The notes: generated by a model not told the origin, from the letters alone. A stretch of DNA of 64,000 bases from Candidatus Omnitrophota bacterium (GCA_043805415.1 JAZDHZ010000033.1:89600-153599), one strand, 5' to 3'; shown: positions 8,246 to 16,766, numbered from the stretch's first letter. Translations and numbers: made by a program.

Positions 8246-8754
8246 TTGGCATATTTTTATTAAATAGGGTATAATTATTATGTAATATGAGTACAACTAA
8301 ATTTCCAAAATGCGATTTATGTTGTAACCATAATTAGAAAAAGGCAAACCTCACGTGAGTGGGGGGCGTCCCAAGAGTCGGATGGATTAAGTAAGACAAA
8401 GGGACCTTGAAAAAAAAGAACGCTATAATATATAAAATATTTTTCAAGGCAAAGCTACGGGTCTAAAAGGGAAAATTGTAAATGGATTTTATTTGTTTTC
8501 AAGTTAGATAGCCGGGCTACCGAAAAATGGTGAACAATATTCCAACCGAACTATCTGGGACAGATGGATCGGTTTTATTTTATATAGGGTTTGAAAATGC
8601 AGAAGGCAATTAATATCTGCAGAAAGGAGGCGCAACTGATAAAATAAACCTGCTGATTTTAGGTTTGTGGGGTCAGAAGCAGTCCTATAATCAGTCAAAC
8701 TGGGAATAAACAACATGGATAAAATTTTAGAGCGAAATTCTTGGGGAAGAATTA

Positions 8755-8790
8755 GCTTGACAGGAAAACATTGTTTTGATAAATATATAT
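8755..8790 (+). promoter_or_regulatory. Putative sigma70-type promoter (TTGACA-N17-TAAATA) upstream of the orphan pilin gene
   Basis: A TTGACA hexamer sits about 55 nt upstream of the pilin ATG with a 17-nt spacer to a TA-rich -10 element. The GGAGG RBS follows. Confidence 0.35.
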
Positions 8791-8810
8791 ATATAACTGG
8801 AGGAAATAAA

Positions 8811-9224
8811 ATGAATAGAAAAGGTTTTACACTTGTTGAACTTTTGATGGTAGTTATCATCATTGGTATATTGGTAACGTTGGCTGTTCCAAGTTATTAT
8901 AAGTCAATTGAAAGAGCAAAAGGCGGTAAAGCAAAATCATCTTTACGTACTATCACTAATGCTCAAATACAGTATAGAGCGCTTAATGATACATATGTTA
9001 ATGGTGCTGATTTAACTTTATTAGCTGATGTTGATTTGCCTGCGGAATTACAGGATGGAGCTACTGGAGATGGAGATTGGACATATGCATGTACTTCTAC
9101 TGATATCACTGCGGATGTTCTTACTACAGCTACAAGAAATCTTGGGCCTTATGCTGGTGATACTGTAACAATGGATCAAGATGGCTTCTATATTAATGTT
9201 GATGCCCATCAAGAATGGAACTAA
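8811..9224 (+). CDS. pilA: type IV pilin / prepilin-type N-terminal cleavage-methylation domain protein (candidate major pilin); start refined to the internal Met after a GGAGG RBS
   Basis: Class III signal peptide: MNRKG|FTLVELLMVVIIIGILVTLAVPSY (G-F cleavage site, Glu at +5, hydrophobic alpha1 helix). The track ORF 8715-9224 has an unlikely 5' extension. Confidence 0.8.
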   Translation: MNRKGFTLVELLMVVIIIGILVTLAVPSYYKSIERAKGGKAKSSLRTITNAQIQYRALNDTYVNGADLTLLADVDLPAELQDGATGDGDWTYACTSTDITADVLTTATRNLGPYAGDTVTMDQDGFYINVDAHQEWN

Positions 9225-9260: not shown

Positions 9261-9322
9261 TGATGCCACTGATTTATTCGTTTAAAGATTTATTAAATGA
9301 ATAAATCAGTGGTTTTTTTAAA
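9261..9322 (+). terminator. Rho-independent terminator after the pilin gene
   Basis: Perfect 14-bp inverted repeat ccactgatttattc ... gaataaatcagtgg followed by tttttttt. Confidence 0.75.
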
Positions 9323-9380: not shown

Positions 9381-10487
9381 ATGCGGATAATTGCGGTAGC
9401 TAATCAAAAAGGCGGTTGCGGTAAAACAACGACATCAATTAATTTATCTGCTTGTTTAGCCGCGCTTAAAAAAAATGTTTTGTTAATAGACTTAGATCCA
9501 CAGGGACACGCGAGTTTGGGGTTAAATATCCAGCCGCAGGATTTATCAAAAACCATATATAATGTATTGACCACAGATAGCGAAGCCAAATTCCGGCTTG
9601 ATGAAGTTATTATCCCTATATCTGAAAATCTTGATCTGGCTCCGGCAAATATTTTGTTATCCGCGATTGAGCAGGAACTGTCTGGAAAACCAGAAAGAGA
9701 AGCAAAATTATTTCAAGCAATATCTTTAATGGTAAGTAAAAAAACATATGATTATGTAATTATTGATTGCTCTCCAAGTTTGGGTCTTTTGACTTTTAAT
9801 GGATTGCGTGCTGCTACTGAACTGATTGCTCCGGTGGACACTGGATTTTTCTCTTTGCATGGCATAAGCCGTTTACTGGAAACTGTCAATCTTATTGATA
9901 AACGCTTGAATTGTCAGATAAAAGTAAAAGCATTGATCACAATGTTTGATTCCAGAACTAAATTTTCCCATGAAGTAAAAGACGAAATTTATAAATATTT
10001 TTCAGGCAATGTTTTTGAAACAGTAATTCATAATAATGTTAGAGTAAAAGAATCTTCAAGCTATGGGGTACCTGTCGCGGCTTATGATAAGCGCTGCCGA
10101 GGGGCACAAGATTACAGCGCATTAGCCAATGAAGTTGAATCTCCGATGAGCAAGGAAAAAGCTAAAGATAAAACCAGCAGCGCTTCTGAGAAAATAACAT
10201 CTTTTATTCAGGAAGTACAGCAGGTCAAAAAAGGCACAGTAGTTACTTTTAATTCTCTGGACGCGAAAAATGTTGAAATTGCCGGTGATTTTAATAACTG
10301 GGTTAGTTCGGTTGATACTAAACTTGAACGGATTGATAATGGTGTATGGGCTAAAGTGATTCATCTTAAACCCGGTGCTTATAAATATAAATTTGTTGTT
10401 GATGGACAATGGATAACTGATCCCAATAATCCTAAGCTGGAAATTGACGAAGTAGGTAATAAAAATTCGATTTTAGAAGTTAAATAA
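9381..10487 (+). CDS. Soj/ParA-family P-loop ATPase fused to a C-terminal CBM48 (AMPK beta glycogen-binding-domain-like) carbohydrate-binding module
   Basis: Deviant Walker A NQKGGCGKTTTSINLSACLA...LLIDLDPQGHAS is almost Soj-like. The C-terminal 90 aa (VVTFNSLDAKNVEIAGDFNNWVSS...YKYKFVVDGQWITDPNNPK...NSILEVK) closely parallel the AMPK beta GBD/CBM48 signature GSFNNW...YKFFVDGQW.HDP...NNIIQVK. Confidence 0.85.
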   Translation: MRIIAVANQKGGCGKTTTSINLSACLAALKKNVLLIDLDPQGHASLGLNIQPQDLSKTIYNVLTTDSEAKFRLDEVIIPISENLDLAPANILLSAIEQELSGKPEREAKLFQAISLMVSKKTYDYVIIDCSPSLGLLTFNGLRAATELIAPVDTGFFSLHGISRLLETVNLIDKRLNCQIKVKALITMFDSRTKFSHEVKDEIYKYFSGNVFETVIHNNVRVKESSSYGVPVAAYDKRCRGAQDYSALANEVESPMSKEKAKDKTSSASEKITSFIQEVQQVKKGTVVTFNSLDAKNVEIAGDFNNWVSSVDTKLERIDNGVWAKVIHLKPGAYKYKFVVDGQWITDPNNPKLEIDEVGNKNSILEVK

Positions 10488-10507
10488 AAAAACTAGGATT
10501 ATGGTTT

Positions 10508-11425
10508 ATGAATAAATTAAAGAAGTTGGGTAAGGGATTAGAAGACATTTCCTATTTGTTTCTTTCTCCGGAGCAAGAAGATACTATTCAAGAAGAGTCC
10601 ATGGCTGAAAAAAAGAAAATTTTAACTGAAACTATTGAGATTACGACAAAAAACATTTGTTTAATCGGCAATAGCCATGATTCGCGAGATGCTTTTTTAG
10701 TGATTAATTTATCATTAGCTTTGGCTAGACTGGGGATGCGTATCGCGGTAGTTGATATGGATGAGAAGCTTCCTTGTCTAAATTTTTTATTAGGAAAAAG
10801 CGCTAACAATGGATCGCAAAATAATGATCAGGAAATTGTTCGCCAAGGGCCTTTTGGCGTAAAGCTGGCAGGGCTAAATGAGTCTCTGCTTGAAAATATG
10901 TTGGTTGATTCTGTTGCTAGAAAAACAATTATGCTGGAACTGAAAAAAATGGAAGAAGAAGTTGATCTTGTGCTGATTAGTGTATCACAAGATAGCCTTT
11001 ATTATATGAATCCATTGCTTAGAAAATCAATAGAAGAATTTCTAGTTTTTGTTTCTCCGGATAAAAACTCAATGCTTAATTCTTATAAAGTTGTAAAAAC
11101 CATTTTTTCTAATAACCCGGTTGCTAAAATTGGTACGATTATAACTGATATTGAACACATGTATGAAATTGACGCGGTGTTTAATAAAATGTTTTCCGCG
11201 GTAAAGAAATTTCTGGTTAAAGAGCTGTATAAATATGGATTTCTTTTTAAACTAAAACAGGAAATTAATAACAACGCGAATATCGCTTCTTTTTATGACG
11301 CGGATTTGACGGCTTGCATCTCAAATATCGCGCAGATTATTATATTGCGCTTGAACCTTGCGGAAAATGTTAAATCAAGCGGGGAATTATTTAAAAATGT
11401 TTTTAATGAGTTTGGGATAAATTGA
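10508..11425 (+). CDS. ParA-fold protein with degenerate (inactive) Walker A and an N-terminal ParB-like LGKGLEDISYLFL peptide
   Basis: Residues about 50-100 (ICLIGNSHDSRDAFLVINLSLALARLGMRIAVVDMDEKLP) align to the ParA P-loop region, but KGGxGKT is replaced by GNSHDSRD. A Walker B-like VDLVLISVSQDS is retained. N-terminal KKLGKGLEDISYLFLS resembles the ParA-activating N-terminal peptide of ParB/Spo0J (GLGKG..AL). Confidence 0.55.
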   Translation: MNKLKKLGKGLEDISYLFLSPEQEDTIQEESMAEKKKILTETIEITTKNICLIGNSHDSRDAFLVINLSLALARLGMRIAVVDMDEKLPCLNFLLGKSANNGSQNNDQEIVRQGPFGVKLAGLNESLLENMLVDSVARKTIMLELKKMEEEVDLVLISVSQDSLYYMNPLLRKSIEEFLVFVSPDKNSMLNSYKVVKTIFSNNPVAKIGTIITDIEHMYEIDAVFNKMFSAVKKFLVKELYKYGFLFKLKQEINNNANIASFYDADLTACISNIAQIIILRLNLAENVKSSGELFKNVFNEFGIN

Positions 11426-11432
11426 GGCTGTT

Positions 11433-12128
11433 ATGACAACGATATTTCACAACGCGCAAATTAATAAAGAAAAACTCAGACAGATTATTTTAAAAAATCC
11501 GCAATCTCTGCTCGCGGGATTAAGTTTTATTGATTTAGAGATGGCTACGGATGAGTCTGGAGTCATTGATTTCTTAGGAGTGGATATAACTGGGCGCATG
11601 GTGGTTGTGAATTTTGATACCCAGGCTAATGACCAGATGCTCATAGAAATATTGTCTCAAATTCAATGGCTCAAAAAAAATGAAGGATTAATCAAAAGGT
11701 TATTTTTTAGTGAGAGCGTGGATTTTGAACAAGCGCCTCAAATGCTTTTGGTTTGTCCTGTTTTTTCCAATAAAATCCAATCAGCGGTAAAACAATTGAC
11801 GGATAAAGATATAAAACTTTTAAAATTTAAATATATTGTCTCAAACGCTGATGACGCGATAATCTTTGACGAGGTATTTTCCAGTATAAATTCAGCCTCC
11901 GCGCCAGCTTTAAAAACTCAACTATCAACTGACCGGGAAAGTATAATGGTTGATCGCGCTGCTTTAACCAAGCACGCGCCGCTAATTAAAAAGACGGTAT
12001 CAGAAATAAGTGAAGACGCGAAAAAAGAACAATCTCCCCTATATGATGTGATTACTCTTACGCCGGAAGAGATTACGGAATTCATGGATTTTAATATAGC
12101 CTTGGCACAGAGCCAAGCAGCTGATTAA
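11433..12128 (+). CDS. hypothetical protein (no recognisable domain); coding likely from position in the operon and start overlap context
   Basis: A 231-aa ORF that starts 8 nt after the upstream stop. No motif could be assigned by eye. Confidence 0.4.
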   Translation: MTTIFHNAQINKEKLRQIILKNPQSLLAGLSFIDLEMATDESGVIDFLGVDITGRMVVVNFDTQANDQMLIEILSQIQWLKKNEGLIKRLFFSESVDFEQAPQMLLVCPVFSNKIQSAVKQLTDKDIKLLKFKYIVSNADDAIIFDEVFSSINSASAPALKTQLSTDRESIMVDRAALTKHAPLIKKTVSEISEDAKKEQSPLYDVITLTPEEITEFMDFNIALAQSQAAD

Positions 12129-12231
12129 GAATAAAACTCTAACCGATTATATAGCTGATCAAATCCTAAATTAAAACCTGCCTGATAATGATTATTAAAT
12201 TTACTACGCAAGTTCTTAGAGGTGAGAAAAT

Positions 12232-12987
12232 ATGCAAGGTGTAAATAGATCATCATCGATCTATAAAATAAATAATTTACTTCCAAACAATATTATATCC
12301 GCTTTTTCCATAGGGAAATTAAATTATGATTATCGTGCTGGGAATGAAAGTGAAGTTCTAAAAAATAGAAAAGATTTTTTTTATCAAGCAGGACTTGCGC
12401 TTGATACTGCTGTTTTTCCCCAACAAGTTCATAAAGCAAACATTCTAAAGGTTGAGCAAAAAGACAAAGGACGTGGCGCGTTTTCTTTCGCGCAGGGCAT
12501 CCCCCAAACAGACGCGTTGATAACTAACGCGAAAGGGATCGCGCTCTGCCTGCTTAGCGCTGATTGTTTGCCGATTATTTTCTATGAAGCAAATGGCAGG
12601 GCAATTGGGATCGCGCATGCCGGATGGCGGGGAATACACGCGGGGATAATTGAAAAAACAATCTTGGCCATGGCCAATGAATTCGCGATTAATCGCGAAG
12701 ATATTAAAGCGTTTTTTGGCCCGGCGATAGGGAGCTGCTGCTATGAAGTTGGCCCTGAGTTTTTAGATATTTTTCCTGAGAATATTAGCGCGCGAAATAA
12801 TAAAACATACCTGGATATTAAAAGCTTAGCTCGGATAAAATGTCTTAGTTCTGGGATTTTTCAGGATTCAATAAATGACGTATCTATTTGTACCAAATGC
12901 AGTAATGACACATTTTTCTCTTATAGATCCGGAGATAATCTCAATCGCCTAATCAGTATTGTGGCTATTGGTGAGCAATGCGGATAG
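12232..12987 (+). CDS. pgeF: peptidoglycan editing factor PgeF / YfiH (DUF152, laccase-domain purine nucleoside phosphorylase family)
   Basis: Family-typical motifs CLLSADCLPIIFYE, IGIAHAGWRG, GPAIGSCCYEVG, and a C-terminal Cys cluster. Confidence 0.8.
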   Translation: MQGVNRSSSIYKINNLLPNNIISAFSIGKLNYDYRAGNESEVLKNRKDFFYQAGLALDTAVFPQQVHKANILKVEQKDKGRGAFSFAQGIPQTDALITNAKGIALCLLSADCLPIIFYEANGRAIGIAHAGWRGIHAGIIEKTILAMANEFAINREDIKAFFGPAIGSCCYEVGPEFLDIFPENISARNNKTYLDIKSLARIKCLSSGIFQDSINDVSICTKCSNDTFFSYRSGDNLNRLISIVAIGEQCG

Positions 12988-13046
12988 ATAGCAATTTCCG
13001 GCTTAGGGAGCTATTTTTTATTTTGACTAATTATCTGCTTGACATT

Positions 13047-13080
13047 TATATGTATCTGTAGTAATTTCTTTAAATAGATA
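13047..13080 (+). promoter_or_regulatory. Putative promoter (TTGACA ... extended -10 TGTAGTAAT) for the Lys-rich protein gene
   Basis: The hexamers sit about 16 nt apart in the AT-rich region upstream of 13105. Confidence 0.3.
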
Positions 13081-13104
13081 ATATCTTTTAAATTAACTAA
13101 AAAA

Positions 13105-14988
13105 TTGAAAAATATGACAAAAAAAATAAGTTTCAAAAAACAAGCAAAAGCTAAAAATACTGTTGCGAAGAAAATTAAAACAGTAGAAAAAAAAGCTTTA
13201 AAAATCAAGGTTGTGAAAACTGCGAAGCCTGCGCGCAAAAAATTAGGTAAGGGCTTGGAAGATATCTCAACCTTGTTTTTGTCTGATATTAAAAAAGACG
13301 CGGTAATTGCTAAGAAAAAAACAATAAAATCCGCGGCTAAAAAAAGTGTAATGCCAAAGGTTAAAAAAGTAAAAAGCGCAAGTGTTAAGACATTAGGCAT
13401 TGCTATAAAAAAATCTCCTAAAAAAATCATTGCAAAGGTTGCTAAAAAACCAGCGGCAGCAAAGGAAATCGTTGCTAAGACTATTGCAAAGGTTGAAACA
13501 AAACCAGCAGTATTAAAGGAAATCGTTGCGCATAAGACTATTGCAAAGGTTGAAACAAAACCAGTGGCAGCAAAGGAAATCGTTGCGCATAAGACCATTG
13601 CAAAGGTTGAAACAAAACCAGCAGTATTAAAGGAAATCGTTGCGAATAAAACTATTGCCAAGGTTGAAAAAAAGGCAACTGCAGTAAATGATAATGTTCC
13701 TAAAAAAACTGTTGCTAAACTTGCTAAAAAAATAGCTGTAGTAAAGGAAAGTATCCCGGAAAAAGTAATCGCGCGTGTTGATGCGAAATTAGACGCGGCA
13801 AAGGATAAAAATCCTGAGAAAACTATGGCTTTAACTGATAAAAAAACTGTAAAAGAGACAACAGGTAAAACACTTGAAAAAATTGCAGTAAAACAAGAAG
13901 AAGCAAAACAAGCAACTTCCAAACCAATTATGAAAATAACAGAGGTGGTAGGGATGGGAACGTTAAAAAAGTCTTCGAAAGCGGTTAAAAAACCAAAGCA
14001 GGATAAACCAGCAGAAAAAAAGAGTACTAAAACAAAAGAGAATAAAAAAACACAAACCTTAGGCCCAATCAGTGATCTGAAGACTTTGTTTAAGAAGAGA
14101 AAAACAGCCGGATTAACTGTTGAGCCGCAGAATATTCAAACAGAGCAAGTTATTGAGGATAGCAAATTTTTTGTTAGTAAGGAAACTGTAAGTCGGATCG
14201 CGGAAGATGAATTTTGTGATTTGCCTGAAGGCTACGGTGATAATAGAATTGTTATTCAGGTTAGGGATCCGTATTGGTTATTTGCTTATTGGGAAGTTTC
14301 TCAGAGAAAATTAAGTTCAGTTGTGGAGAAATATGGTAGTGCTATCCATAACGCAAAAAGAGTACTACGGGTTCATGATATTACATCGGTTGCATTCAAT
14401 GGAAAGAATTCAAACAGTTTTTTTGATATAGCGATTAATGATGTTGCCAAGAACTGGTATGTAAATGTCGGCAATCCTGGGAGAAGTTATTGTATTGATC
14501 TGGGGCTTGTCTTAGCTGATGGGCGTTTTGTCGTGTTTGCTCGTTCAAATTTTGTGACAACTCCGATTGATGGCCCAAGTCTAATAACTGATGAAGAGTG
14601 GATGATTGTTGAAGATGATTTTAACAAGCTTTATGGATTATCTGCTGGATTGGGGATTGGCCTGAGTTCCGGAGAGTTGAGAAGACAAATAAAAACAAAG
14701 ATGAAGAATTTATCATCAGGGATATTGAGTTCACCTGGGGTGACAACAGTGTCTCCGCGTCGTAATTTTTGGATGGTTGTCAATACTGAGCTAATAGTTT
14801 ATGGAGCAACTCAACCAGGTTCTGAACTTACAGTGCAGGGAAAACCGATTAAATTAAATGAAGATGGAACATTTAGTCTTCGTTTTGCCTTGCCTGATGG
14901 AGAGCAGGTCATTCCGGTTCGGGCGGTTTCTCCGGATAAGGTTGAAGAACGGGTAATTACTCCTGTGGTCAAAAAAAACACGGTGTAA
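13105..14988 (+). CDS. Lys/Ala-rich (histone H1-like) protein with a ParB-like LGKGLEDISTLFL peptide, four ~20-aa tandem repeats and a C-terminal DUF4912-like globular domain + beta-sandwich tail
   Basis: Residues 40-60 ARKKLGKGLEDISTLFLS match the motif of the 10508 protein. Repeats KEIVAHKTIAKVETKPAVL x4. C-terminal RIVIQVRDPYWLFAYWEVS...NWYVNVGNPGRSYCIDLG looks like the DUF4912 signature. The opposite-strand ORF 13011-13922 is a low-complexity artefact. Confidence 0.6.
   Translation: MKNMTKKISFKKQAKAKNTVAKKIKTVEKKALKIKVVKTAKPARKKLGKGLEDISTLFLSDIKKDAVIAKKKTIKSAAKKSVMPKVKKVKSASVKTLGIAIKKSPKKIIAKVAKKPAAAKEIVAKTIAKVETKPAVLKEIVAHKTIAKVETKPVAAKEIVAHKTIAKVETKPAVLKEIVANKTIAKVEKKATAVNDNVPKKTVAKLAKKIAVVKESIPEKVIARVDAKLDAAKDKNPEKTMALTDKKTVKETTGKTLEKIAVKQEEAKQATSKPIMKITEVVGMGTLKKSSKAVKKPKQDKPAEKKSTKTKENKKTQTLGPISDLKTLFKKRKTAGLTVEPQNIQTEQVIEDSKFFVSKETVSRIAEDEFCDLPEGYGDNRIVIQVRDPYWLFAYWEVSQRKLSSVVEKYGSAIHNAKRVLRVHDITSVAFNGKNSNSFFDIAINDVAKNWYVNVGNPGRSYCIDLGLVLADGRFVVFARSNFVTTPIDGPSLITDEEWMIVEDDFNKLYGLSAGLGIGLSSGELRRQIKTKMKNLSSGILSSPGVTTVSPRRNFWMVVNTELIVYGATQPGSELTVQGKPIKLNEDGTFSLRFALPDGEQVIPVRAVSPDKVEERVITPVVKKNTV
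13445..13685 (+). repeat. Four tandem copies of a 60-bp coding repeat inside the Lys-rich gene
   Basis: aaggaaatcgttgcgcataagactattgcaaaggttgaaacaaaaccagc... is repeated head-to-tail with a few substitutions. Confidence 0.85.
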
Positions 14989-15020
14989 GTGCTGGAATCC
15001 TTTAACATGCTTTTTAATCG

Positions 15021-15058
15021 CGCCGGAATGAGTATTAACATTCCGGCGTTTTATTTTT
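15021..15058 (+). terminator. Rho-independent terminator after the Lys-rich/DUF4912 gene
   Basis: cgccggaatg-agtattaa-cattccggcg followed by ttttattttt. Confidence 0.8.
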
Positions 15059-15185: not shown

Positions 15186-16766
15186 ATGGAAAAAGGATAT
15201 CTTTGTATTGTTTTACATGGGCATTTACCTTTTGTTCGTCATCCTGAGCACGCGAATTTCTTAGAAGAAGAATGGCTTTACGAGGCTATAACTGAGACAT
15301 ATATTCCATTGCTTAGTATATTTGATAAGTTGATAGAAGACGGAGTTAATTTTCGGATTACCATGGGTGTATCTCCGCCATTAATATCAATGCTTCTTGA
15401 TCCTTTATTGCAGCATCGTTACATAATGCATATAGAGAAATTAATCGAATTGGCAAGTCGTGAGGTTGAAAGAACAAGATGGCAGCCGGAATTTAATAAG
15501 CTGGCTTTAATGTATCTAAGTAAATTTAATCTTGCCCGATATTATTTTGCCGAAAAACACCGGGGAAATCTTTTAGAGGCATTTAAAAGAATTCAGGATG
15601 CCGGAAGATTAGACATCATGACTTGCGGCGCTACGCATGGGTTTTTCCCATTGATGGATACATGTAGAGATTCAATTCGGGCACAGGTAAGAGCCGCGGT
15701 TGAGCAATATAAAAAAGTATTTCAGCGTCAACCAAAGGGCATTTGGCTGCCTGAGTGTGGATATCATCCTGGTGACGATGAAATCCTGCGGGAAAACGGA
15801 TTAAGATATTTCTTTAGTGATACCCATGGGGTACTTCATGGTACTCCGCGGCCCAAATATGGTGTTTTTGCTCCGGTTTTTTGTAAGTCCGGAGTTGCTT
15901 GCTTTGGACGGGATCTGGAGTCTTCAAAACAGGTTTGGAGCGCTAAGCAGGGATATCCTGGAGATTACAATTACCGGGAATTCTATCGGGATATTGGTTT
16001 TGATCTTGATTTTGATTATATAAAACCGTATATTCATCCAGATGGAATCAGAACAAATACAGGAATAAAATACTATCGGATTACCGGGGAAACCGATAAT
16101 AAACAGCCGTACAATCAAGATGTTGCTATGCAAACAGCGGCATCGCACGCGTCTAATTTTATGTTCAACCGGGAAAAACAGGCGGAGTATGTGAAGGACA
16201 TAATAAAAAGAAAACCGATTATTGTCGCTCCCTATGACGCGGAGTTATTTGGACACTGGTGGTATGAAGGCCCGGATTGGCTTAATTTTTTAATTAGAAA
16301 AATTGCTTTTGATCAAAAAAATATCAAACTTATTTCGCCATCGGATTACTTAGATGAATATCCGAAAAATCAAGTTATTACACCTTCACTTTCCAGTTGG
16401 GGATATAAAGGTTATGCCGAGTTTTGGCTGGAAGGTTCAAATGCCTGGGTTTACAGGCATTTACATAAAGCTTCTGAGCGGATGAGTGAATTAGTTAAGC
16501 TTTATCCCAATGCCGGCGGTTTGACGCTTAGGGCGCTGAACCAGGCTTTGCGTGAAGTATTACTTGCCCAAAGTTCTGACTGGGCTTTTATTATGAAAAC
16601 CGGGACACATGTTTCTTATGCTGTGGATAGAACCAAAAAACATGTGCTTAATTTTACAAAATTATACAATCAGATAAAGGCAGATAATATTAAAGAACAG
16701 TGGCTGAGTGAAATTGAGTCAAAAGATAATATATTTCCTGACATTGATTATCATTACCATTCTTAA
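15186..16766 (+). CDS. glycoside hydrolase family 57 protein, 1,4-alpha-glucan branching enzyme type (DUF1957-containing)
   Basis: N-terminal GH57 signature YLCIVLHGHLPFVRHPE and ...CGATHGFFPLM match Thermus/Thermococcus GH57 branching enzymes. Length about 525 aa. Confidence 0.88.
   Translation: MEKGYLCIVLHGHLPFVRHPEHANFLEEEWLYEAITETYIPLLSIFDKLIEDGVNFRITMGVSPPLISMLLDPLLQHRYIMHIEKLIELASREVERTRWQPEFNKLALMYLSKFNLARYYFAEKHRGNLLEAFKRIQDAGRLDIMTCGATHGFFPLMDTCRDSIRAQVRAAVEQYKKVFQRQPKGIWLPECGYHPGDDEILRENGLRYFFSDTHGVLHGTPRPKYGVFAPVFCKSGVACFGRDLESSKQVWSAKQGYPGDYNYREFYRDIGFDLDFDYIKPYIHPDGIRTNTGIKYYRITGETDNKQPYNQDVAMQTAASHASNFMFNREKQAEYVKDIIKRKPIIVAPYDAELFGHWWYEGPDWLNFLIRKIAFDQKNIKLISPSDYLDEYPKNQVITPSLSSWGYKGYAEFWLEGSNAWVYRHLHKASERMSELVKLYPNAGGLTLRALNQALREVLLAQSSDWAFIMKTGTHVSYAVDRTKKHVLNFTKLYNQIKADNIKEQWLSEIESKDNIFPDIDYHYHS

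Follow-up and report, generated by a model that had tools for sequence, protein, structure and literature searches.

Why do two otherwise unrelated proteins, encoded close together, carry the same 16-residue peptide in their N-terminal regions, and what does that peptide contact? The question is raised by a 64,000-nucleotide (nt) stretch of DNA from Candidatus Omnitrophota bacterium (GCA_043805415.1 JAZDHZ010000033.1:89600-153599), which we call the window and which is read 5' to 3' on one strand and numbered from its first letter. Here a gene for a Soj-type ParA ATPase with a C-terminal CBM48 module (ParA-CBM48) is followed by genes for a P-loop-less protein of the MinD/FlhG fold (pseudo-MinD, open reading frame (ORF) 10508-11425), a NucS-like protein, and a Lys-rich protein with a DUF4912 domain (ORF 13105-14988). 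The peptide is on the first and the last of these three. An initial annotation, made from the sequence alone, had likened the peptide to the N-terminal motif of ParB/Spo0J and proposed both carriers as candidate activators or adaptors of the adjacent ParA-CBM48. On comparative evidence, we argue that the peptide is probably (at a rough probability of 0.7) a portable short linear motif that docks on, and activates, the Soj-type ParA encoded beside it.

One peptide on two unrelated proteins

Copy 1 (KKLGKGLEDISYLFLS) occupies residues 5-20 of pseudo-MinD, which starts with MNKLKKLGKGLEDISYLFLS, and copy 2 (KKLGKGLEDISTLFLS) occupies residues 45-60 of the DUF4912 protein, inside the segment ARKKLGKGLEDISTLFLSD. 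The first range is the one annotated initially, and the second had been given as 44-60; with a start at ATG 13114, as in the public 624-residue annotation P0045, copy 2 is numbered 42-57. Translation of the ORFs bears out that the two proteins share 15 of the 16 residues. What lies on either side is unrelated: pseudo-MinD has its start codon and an acidic linker there, the DUF4912 protein has Lys-rich tracts. At the DNA level the copies are identical at 35 of 48 positions, with different codons at 10 of the 15 identical residues and all three bases changed in the Y/T codon. When back-translated into a degenerate pattern, the motif matches the window exactly twice, against 0.00 matches expected from 100 shuffles, and a six-frame regular-expression scan of the 64 kb found no third copy.

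It could be asked whether the pair is just left over from a duplication or gene conversion that happened recently in the DNA, or is a chance match. Beyond the peptide identity itself nothing favours this, and its probability is practically negligible: the 13 differing nucleotides are mostly synonymous, the flanks are unrelated, chance predicts no matches, and the same motif is written with fully randomised codons in other phyla. The initial annotation had named a duplicated DNA segment as the finding that would undo it, and the diverged codons, unrelated flanks and cross-phylum occurrence refute that alternative.

The further claim, that the peptide is under purifying selection, is borne out on a larger scale. 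A family alignment of 44 homologs of pseudo-MinD, reaching down to 34% overall identity, shows the peptide near-invariant, and among 69 distinct DNA copies the invariant positions draw on all six Leu codons, all four for Gly, four of those for Ser and both for Phe. These 69 copies were collected with a pattern requiring those residues; the same invariance is seen independently in the family-based alignments and in a search with a peptide profile. The most invariant half of the motif is the part that is not ParB-like, [DE][IV]SHLFLS.

The peptide follows a ParA gene across bacteria

Searched for with a degenerate DNA pattern in one genome per species (185,579 species, surrounding ORFs classed by phmmer), the motif was found in 55 stretches from about ten phyla. 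These include Omnitrophota, Rokubacteria/Methylomirabilota, Vicinamibacterales and other Acidobacteriota, Gemmatimonadales and Nitrospirae, as well as Zixibacteria, Binatia, Deltaproteobacteria, Planctomycetes and metagenome-assembled genomes (MAGs) of Pseudomonadota. In 51 of the 55 the gene directly upstream is a ParA gene; the remaining four are cut by a contig end or hold a DUF4912 copy whose ParA is on a neighbouring stretch of the same contig, and in none of the 55 does the peptide occur in a context without such a ParA. This confinement to ParA neighbourhoods (55/55) upholds both window carriers as candidate partners of the ParA-CBM48 next to them. The carriers are pseudo-MinD (26 stretches), NucS-like proteins (26), DUF4912 proteins (5, of which 3 also have a pseudo-MinD copy) and an ORF cut by a contig end (1). 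Searching 1.84 billion representative proteins with a peptide profile gave 36 matches, most of them P-loop-less MinD-like proteins of about 300 residues from other lineages, the others DUF4912 proteins and small NucS-like proteins homologous to the window's third gene; those inspected represent the same three scaffolds, except for short fragments and P0117, which was not classified.

The peptide is linked exclusively to a ParA gene and moves between scaffolds. In one gene order (type 1), ParA, with or without CBM48, is followed by a peptide-bearing pseudo-MinD and then a NucS-like gene, as in Omnitrophota, Nitrospirae, Zixibacteria, Deltaproteobacteria, Binatia and some Pseudomonadota MAGs. 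In the other (type 2), found in Rokubacteria/Methylomirabilota, Vicinamibacterales, Gemmatimonadales and one Planctomycetales MAG, pseudo-MinD is absent and ParA-CBM48 is followed by a NucS-like protein with the peptide on an N-terminal extension. The peptide thus sits on pseudo-MinD where the operon has one, and otherwise on the NucS-like extension. Some Omnitrophota add a second copy on the DUF4912 protein. A two-gene variant (L055) consists of ParA-CBM48 and pseudo-MinD, with no NucS-like gene, and in three loci (L103 2161-3714, L119 3825-5546, L121 1357-2889) the peptide, pseudo-MinD and NucS-like parts, together with an LTPEEF-type motif, form one chain of 510-573 residues directly downstream of ParA-CBM48. 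The existence of these fusions argues that pseudo-MinD and the NucS-like protein act together. In L095 (820-1704), which also has no NucS-like gene, the protein downstream of ParA-CBM48 is 294 residues long and carries the variant NQGRGLAKVSHLFLS followed by an HTH_17/MerR-like domain, a layout that recalls the small centromere-binding partners of plasmid ParAs.

We also followed the link from its other end, using 47 metagenomic ParA-CBM48 fusions that were picked via the CBM48 end and blind to the peptide. About 28 of them have a downstream partner with the peptide or a variant; a strict regular expression finds 9 of the 47, and reading the downstream genes added divergent forms such as RPLSEISHLFLS, KKLVRGLKDISPLF and LPRDLGDVLHYFLP, besides the L095 variant. 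The variants share (K/R)-x-L-x-x-(I/V)-S-H-L-F, and truncated ones (R-P-L-S-E-I-S-H-L-F) retain exactly the basic-x-L-x-x-I core. About 19 of the 47 have no peptide partner, many of them belonging to a longer ParA-CBM48 subfamily (400-466 residues) and others having too little downstream sequence, so the peptide implies ParA while ParA-CBM48 does not always imply the peptide. Members of the longer subfamily without a peptide-bearing neighbour (L071, L080, L102, L105, L109, L116 and L117) are followed downstream by proteins with signal-peptide-like N-termini.

The ParA and its likeness to ParB-bound relatives

The window ParA-CBM48 matches Pfam AAA_31 (3.5e-53), AMPK1_CBM (3.8e-16) and CBM_48 (5e-8), and its closest PDB match is the chromosomal ParA of Myxococcus xanthus (8ray, 197 bits, 3e-57), with Soj 1wcv at 3e-41. 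It has KGGCGKT with both the signature Lys and the Walker A Lys, the Motif 2 DLD, and R221, which corresponds to R238 of M. xanthus ParA. Both Walker A lysines and the Motif 2 aspartates are kept in all 56 aligned ParAs that cover these columns, and the DNA-binding Arg/Lys is conserved in the family.

How the cleft of such a ParA receives a partner peptide has been described for M. xanthus, where L11, R13, L15, L18 and I19 of ParB are critical, the hydrophobic residues inserting into a cleft on the ParA dimer's margin (V116, L150, L152, L155, L187, L192) and R13 contacting the trans subunit near Y81, E82, D110 and E117; in roughly half of chromosomal ParBs this central position is a Lys (PMC12462528). 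Mapped by phmmer alignment and in M. xanthus numbering, the window ParA keeps Y81, E117, L150, L152, L187, L192 and the DNA-binding R238, and the L155 position is a Phe that is near-invariant in the family and still hydrophobic. As read from these alignments, the catalytic, DNA-binding and most cleft residues are intact, and the target is thus predicted to be an active ParA, probably able to bind DNA, whose cleft would largely suit a ParB-type peptide. Co-variation between peptide class and cleft (for example Trp for Phe at L155 in neighbours of VRGLxDISPLF peptides) came from small, phylogeny-confounded groups and was not used.

On the peptide side, L7, K9, L11 and I14 have the spacing of ParB L11, R13, L15 and L18, so that four of the five critical positions fit, by eye and against the published numbers. 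On this comparison the likeness to ParB/Spo0J extends to these four positions and not to the fifth, I19. The peptide profile matched no PDB sequence, so the comparison rests on published residue numbers and not on an alignment score. The two peptides are alike in being short hydrophobic-G-(K/R)-G-L-x-x-(L/I) motifs centred on a basic residue and located in an N-terminal region that is disordered, on a protein encoded beside a Soj-type ParA; the window ParA has largely kept the peptide-binding cleft (ParB residues 11-19, PMC12462528). They differ in their setting: neither window carrier has a ParB/Srx CTPase domain or a parS-type helix-turn-helix (HTH) in Pfam, which gives a weak CbiA match for one and DUF4912 plus Glucodextran_B for the other; carriers of this type have an HTH only in L095 and show no parS logic, and the peptide occurs on at least three unrelated scaffolds.

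Proposed docking on ParA and its alternatives

Found only on proteins encoded beside such a ParA, the peptide is most likely a docking and switch-off handle for it. We propose that ATP-bound ParA dimers would sit on the nucleoid while their C-terminal CBM48 would hold alpha-glucan (glycogen). The peptide, folded as an amphipathic helix, would lodge in the hydrophobic cleft along the dimer's edge and reach the neighbouring subunit with its central Lys/Arg, and this docking would trigger ATP hydrolysis and the release of ParA from DNA. Two clients would use the handle in the window, the ancient pseudo-MinD, acting with the adjacently encoded NucS-like pseudo-nuclease, and the lineage-specific Lys-rich DUF4912 protein, encoded beside a GH57 branching enzyme. 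Physical binding and ATPase stimulation are what we infer from these patterns.

Several observations weigh against this picture. Three ParB-contact residues are changed in the window ParA (E82 to Asn, D110 to Leu and V116 to Gln), an invariant Ser stands where ParB has I19, and the SHLFLS extension has no counterpart in ParB. The link runs one way, with only about 28 of the 47 ParA-CBM48 genes having the peptide or a variant directly downstream. Moreover, this ParA carries its own cargo-binding domain, whereas in classical systems the cargo is marked by the activator, and a fold search with DUF4912 gave no evidence of carbohydrate binding.

In a different proposal, ParA is simply a co-regulated neighbour: what the peptide docks is another shared partner, or else it makes its pseudo-MinD, NucS-like and DUF4912 carriers self-assemble or condense. 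The invariance of the non-ParB-like half [DE][IV]SHLFLS fits this proposal, as does the roughly 40% of sampled ParA-CBM48 genes without a peptide-bearing neighbour, and the clients have more conserved short motifs (LTPEEIxEF, FF[EK][KR]L and PISDLKxLF) that suggest a network of peptide contacts. But each candidate for the shared partner is missing somewhere: pseudo-MinD from type 2 operons, the NucS-like protein from L055 and L095, CBM48 from L007, L018, L024, L044 and L063, and DUF4912 from outside Omnitrophota. The ParA ATPase domain is the only component of every version of the module, and every peptide copy is beside it, so we consider a non-ParA partner unlikely.

Could the peptide instead be a generic amphipathic helix for membrane or surface targeting? 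Its Lys-rich residues are indeed followed by an amphipathic stretch rich in L, I, L and F, MinD-type proteins use amphipathic helices, and many pseudo-MinDs end in an FFxKL-like sequence. However, the peptide has a net charge of just +1 and an E-D pair in its middle, and Gly, Ser and acidic residues are near-invariant over about ten phyla, which is typical of specific protein recognition and untypical of lipid binding. The strict linkage to a nucleoid-type ParA with a conserved DNA-binding Arg/Lys also speaks against a membrane role, and we find this explanation very improbable. Docking on ParA remains the reading we prefer for the peptide.

Pseudo-enzymes and a Lys-rich protein as carriers

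The initial annotation had described the first carrier as a catalytically dead paralog of ParA that could heterodimerise with or cap the active ATPase. The ParA/MinD-superfamily fold and the dead P-loop have held up, and paralogy and capping have not. The protein is 100% identical to V1747_06675 and has only a sub-threshold CbiA match in Pfam, yet its family profile matches FlhG (4rz2, 2e-16), FleN (4e-15) and MinD (2e-9) in the PDB, and a Foldseek search with its AlphaFold2 model puts FlhG on top (E 1e-14, template-modelling score 0.71-0.74). The model has a predicted local distance difference test (pLDDT) score of 74, with residues 1-44 below 50, so that the peptide region is predicted to be disordered; the remaining carriers have the motif on an N-terminal extension or within a Lys-rich linker. 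Where ParA has QKGGCGKT the protein has GNSHDSRD, and no GK[ST] occurs at the Walker A site in any of 50 aligned family sequences from many phyla, which makes it a predicted pseudo-ATPase of the MinD/FlhG lineage. A recent origin from the neighbouring ParA was rejected, since hhalign of the family against that ParA gives 19% probability over 40 columns and the closest PDB entries are FlhG/FleN. By profile and model, the protein is a member of an old and widespread pseudo-MinD/FlhG family.

That the pseudo-ATPase mainly heterodimerises with or caps ParA through the ATPase-fold interface, with the peptide secondary, would suit the superfamily fold that the two proteins have in common and genes only 20 nt apart. 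Yet ATP-sandwich dimers need the signature Lys and the P-loop, both of which pseudo-MinD has lost, and its FlhG/MinD lineage is remote from Soj-type ParA. Many systems, furthermore, have no pseudo-MinD and place the peptide on the NucS-like protein, and the invariant part of the family is the peptide and not the core. We regard such heterodimers as decidedly improbable, and the peptide as the likelier point of contact with ParA.

FlhG itself is built from an N-terminal peptide that activates another NTPase, FlhF, followed by a MinD-like core and, at the C-terminus, an amphipathic helix. The pseudo-MinD family is like FlhG, FleN and MinD in fold and unlike them in lacking Walker A and in having an N-terminal peptide that is ParB-like and not of the FlhG DQAxxLR type; its genomic partner is a Soj-type ParA rather than FlhF or MinE. 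The window pseudo-MinD has ELFKNVFNEF (11384-11413) at its C-terminus, with a modelled helix at residues 294-301; this belongs to an FF[EK][KR]L-like C-terminal motif that is present in many, not all, pseudo-MinDs across phyla and recalls the membrane-targeting helices of MinD/FlhG.

Most versions of the module include the NucS-like protein, and the window copy has no N-terminal peptide. Profile hits that are weak yet consistent suggest a NucS-type pseudo-nuclease fold: the family profile matches PDB NucS 2vld at 4.7e-4, Pfam NucS_C is matched by 5 of 24 members, and the positions aligned to NucS E174/K176 are N and D in the window and rarely E or K in the family. The C-terminal tail of the window protein contains ITLTPEEITEFMDF (residues 207-220, nt 12051-12092), an instance of a second conserved motif, [IV]xL[TS]xEE[IF]xxF. 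This motif ends the NucS-like tail only in operons with pseudo-MinD; it is at the C-terminus of pseudo-MinD where the NucS-like protein is absent (L055 4372-5268), and right after the main peptide in single-chain fusions (L103 2161-3714, residues ~47-57).

The DUF4912 protein is assigned by PF16258 at 129.8 bits against a gathering cut-off of 29.4. Among 68 DUF4912 homologs the peptide is present only in the roughly 20 closest Omnitrophota relatives, the others having Rho_N or plain basic tails, and some Omnitrophota loci have a short DUF4912 protein without the peptide. A 57-nt tandem repeat of about six copies (window 13416-13750) codes for 19-residue Lys-rich repeats, IAKVETKPAVLKEIVAHKT, in the linker of the protein, and an antisense ORF of 303 residues (13011-13922) is probably a by-product of this biased repeat sequence. 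About 55 residues before the DUF4912 domain lies LGPISDLKTLFKKRK (window 14059-14103), conserved only in DUF4912 proteins of the Omnitrophota clade, including the short peptide-less ones. Its spacing fits the truncated variant RPLSEISHLF, and it may therefore be a second or ancestral ParA-contact motif.

Glycogen as a possible cargo

If ParA is the target, the next question is what the module moves. The CBM of the window ParA aligns with the AMPK beta CBM (E ~3e-11) including the W, K, W and N that bind glycogen, and its fusion partner is a bacterial partition ATPase, not a kinase scaffold or an enzyme that acts on glucans. A free-standing CBM48 protein of 115 residues is encoded about 2 kb upstream of ParA-CBM48/pseudo-MinD in two Pseudomonadota MAGs (L025 3562-3909 and L027 3-350). 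The GH57 branching-enzyme gene is syntenic in Omnitrophota and also adjoins the module in Zixibacteria (L036) and in L058. Together, the CBM48 on ParA, GH57 beside the module in Omnitrophota and Zixibacteria, and the pairing of DUF4912 with GH57 point to glycogen as cargo, a proposal that we hold tentatively and at somewhat less than even odds. If so, ParA would likely serve to position or partition glycogen, or proteins associated with it, along the nucleoid, in analogy to what McdAB does for carboxysomes. Another output to be kept in view is that the CBM senses glycogen status, as in AMPK, and relays it to nucleoid-associated processes. Most ambitiously, the module might be the first ParA-based machine to partition or position a polysaccharide storage body, in which a nucleoid-bound CBM48-ParA would hold glycogen and a complex of the two pseudo-enzymes, joined in some Omnitrophota by DUF4912, would regulate it, all of them plugging in through the peptide; this we put forward as a possibility, at less than even odds.

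Relation to known positioning systems

What ParA/MinD ATPases put in place ranges from chromosomes and plasmids to carboxysomes, chemoreceptor arrays, flagella and the divisome. Similar in outline is the McdA/McdB system of carboxysomes, which likewise has a nucleoid ParA-type ATPase, a largely disordered basic partner encoded by an adjacent gene and a metabolic cargo other than DNA (PMC11407121). Unlike in McdAB, the presumptive cargo-binding domain (CBM48) is on the window ATPase itself, the partners are a pseudo-ATPase and a pseudo-nuclease, and the putative cargo is a polysaccharide and not a protein shell; we found no sequence relation of the window partners to McdB. The hints at a cargo-positioning system of the McdAB kind are indirect: the CBM48 on ParA, the GH57 neighbour and the conserved DNA-binding residue. 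In the PomXYZ system of Myxococcus, an N-terminal peptide of PomX activates the ParA-like PomZ. PomXYZ is alike in that a nucleoid-bound ParA-like ATPase has more than one client and a short N-terminal activating peptide is on a scaffold that is not ParB, but its proteins are unrelated, it positions cell division, and it has no carbohydrate-binding domain.

A partner with an N-terminal activating peptide is a well-known principle, and glycogen is mentioned zero times in a 2024 review of ParA/MinD cargos (PMC11407121). Our literature searches on glycogen-linked ParA, on DUF4912 and on AMPK1_CBM with ParA found nothing relevant, and across Pfam, NCBIfam and the literature we found neither a ParA described as carrying a glycogen-binding domain, nor any account of the pseudo-MinD family or of what DUF4912 does. 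We rate the module as a variant of ParA/partner positioning systems that would apply the known activating-peptide principle with a new kind of cargo, pseudo-enzyme adaptors and a motif that hops between scaffolds.

Why might this matter? Glycogen reportedly reorganises the E. coli cytoplasm, according to a recent study, and the module, present in about ten mostly uncultured phyla, is a candidate answer to how bacteria distribute glycogen. A docking peptide that shifts between unrelated scaffolds is also a natural experiment that would define the minimal determinant of ParA-partner specificity. The pseudo-enzyme families and DUF4912 gain a testable role, which, if true, would be the first functional assignment for DUF4912 and the pseudo-MinD family, and portable ParA-docking peptides could be of practical use for engineering the positioning of synthetic cargo.

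Features and surroundings of the locus

Features of the window discussed in the text are collected in Table 1.

Table 1. Coordinates and basis of assignment of features in the 64,000-nt window
Feature	Position	Strand	Basis or content
Soj-type ParA ATPase (aa 1-~260) with C-terminal CBM48/AMPK-beta-type module (aa ~283-368, nt ~10227-10484)	9381..10487	+	Pfam, PDB matches
Pseudo-MinD/FlhG-fold protein (predicted): N-terminal peptide, disordered acidic linker, P-loop-less ATPase-fold core	10508..11425	+	Profile, AlphaFold2, Foldseek
Peptide copy 1	10520..10567	+	KKLGKGLEDISYLFLS; near-invariant across its family
Degenerate Walker A position GNSHDSRD, aa 54-61	10667..10690	+	Aligned to ParA QKGGCGKT
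NucS-C-like (PD-(D/E)xK-fold) protein without catalytic E-x-K (predicted)	11433..12128	+	Pfam NucS_C 2.3e-3, NCBIfam NucS 2e-6
Cu-oxidase_4 (PgeF/YfiH-type) gene	12232..12987	+	Pfam 8.9e-60
Lys-rich protein, probably starting at ATG 13114, with a basic N-terminus, then peptide, Lys-rich repeats, DUF4912 and C-terminal beta-sandwich	13105..14988	+	Domain order
Peptide copy 2	13237..13284	+	KKLGKGLEDISTLFLS
GH57 alpha-glucan branching enzyme, glycogen-metabolism neighbour of DUF4912	15186..16766	+	Pfam Glyco_hydro_57 6e-39, BE_C 2e-41

The gene order of the locus is conserved in other Omnitrophota. Terminator-like hairpins at 9266-9312 and 15020-15049 bracket 9381-14988, inside which there are only short 6- and 7-pair hairpin matches, within the ParA and DUF4912 genes; this is consistent with co-transcription of the bracketed genes. 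The Cu-oxidase_4 gene keeps its position in L001-L003 and other Omnitrophota loci, while the module of other phyla lacks it; we count it as an uncertain member of the system.

Immediately upstream of ParA, in the window as well as in L001 and L003, there is a type IV pilin-like gene with an N_methyl motif (window 8715-9224), and L002 has an unassigned short gene in its place. In the window the pilin-like gene is followed by the first of the two hairpins, a strong terminator-like structure with a 20-bp stem. Across the whole window (1-64000) the GC skew is about +0.2 and almost all long ORFs are on the plus strand, except at ~31.6-33.7 kb, where two genes are on the minus strand and the skew is near zero.

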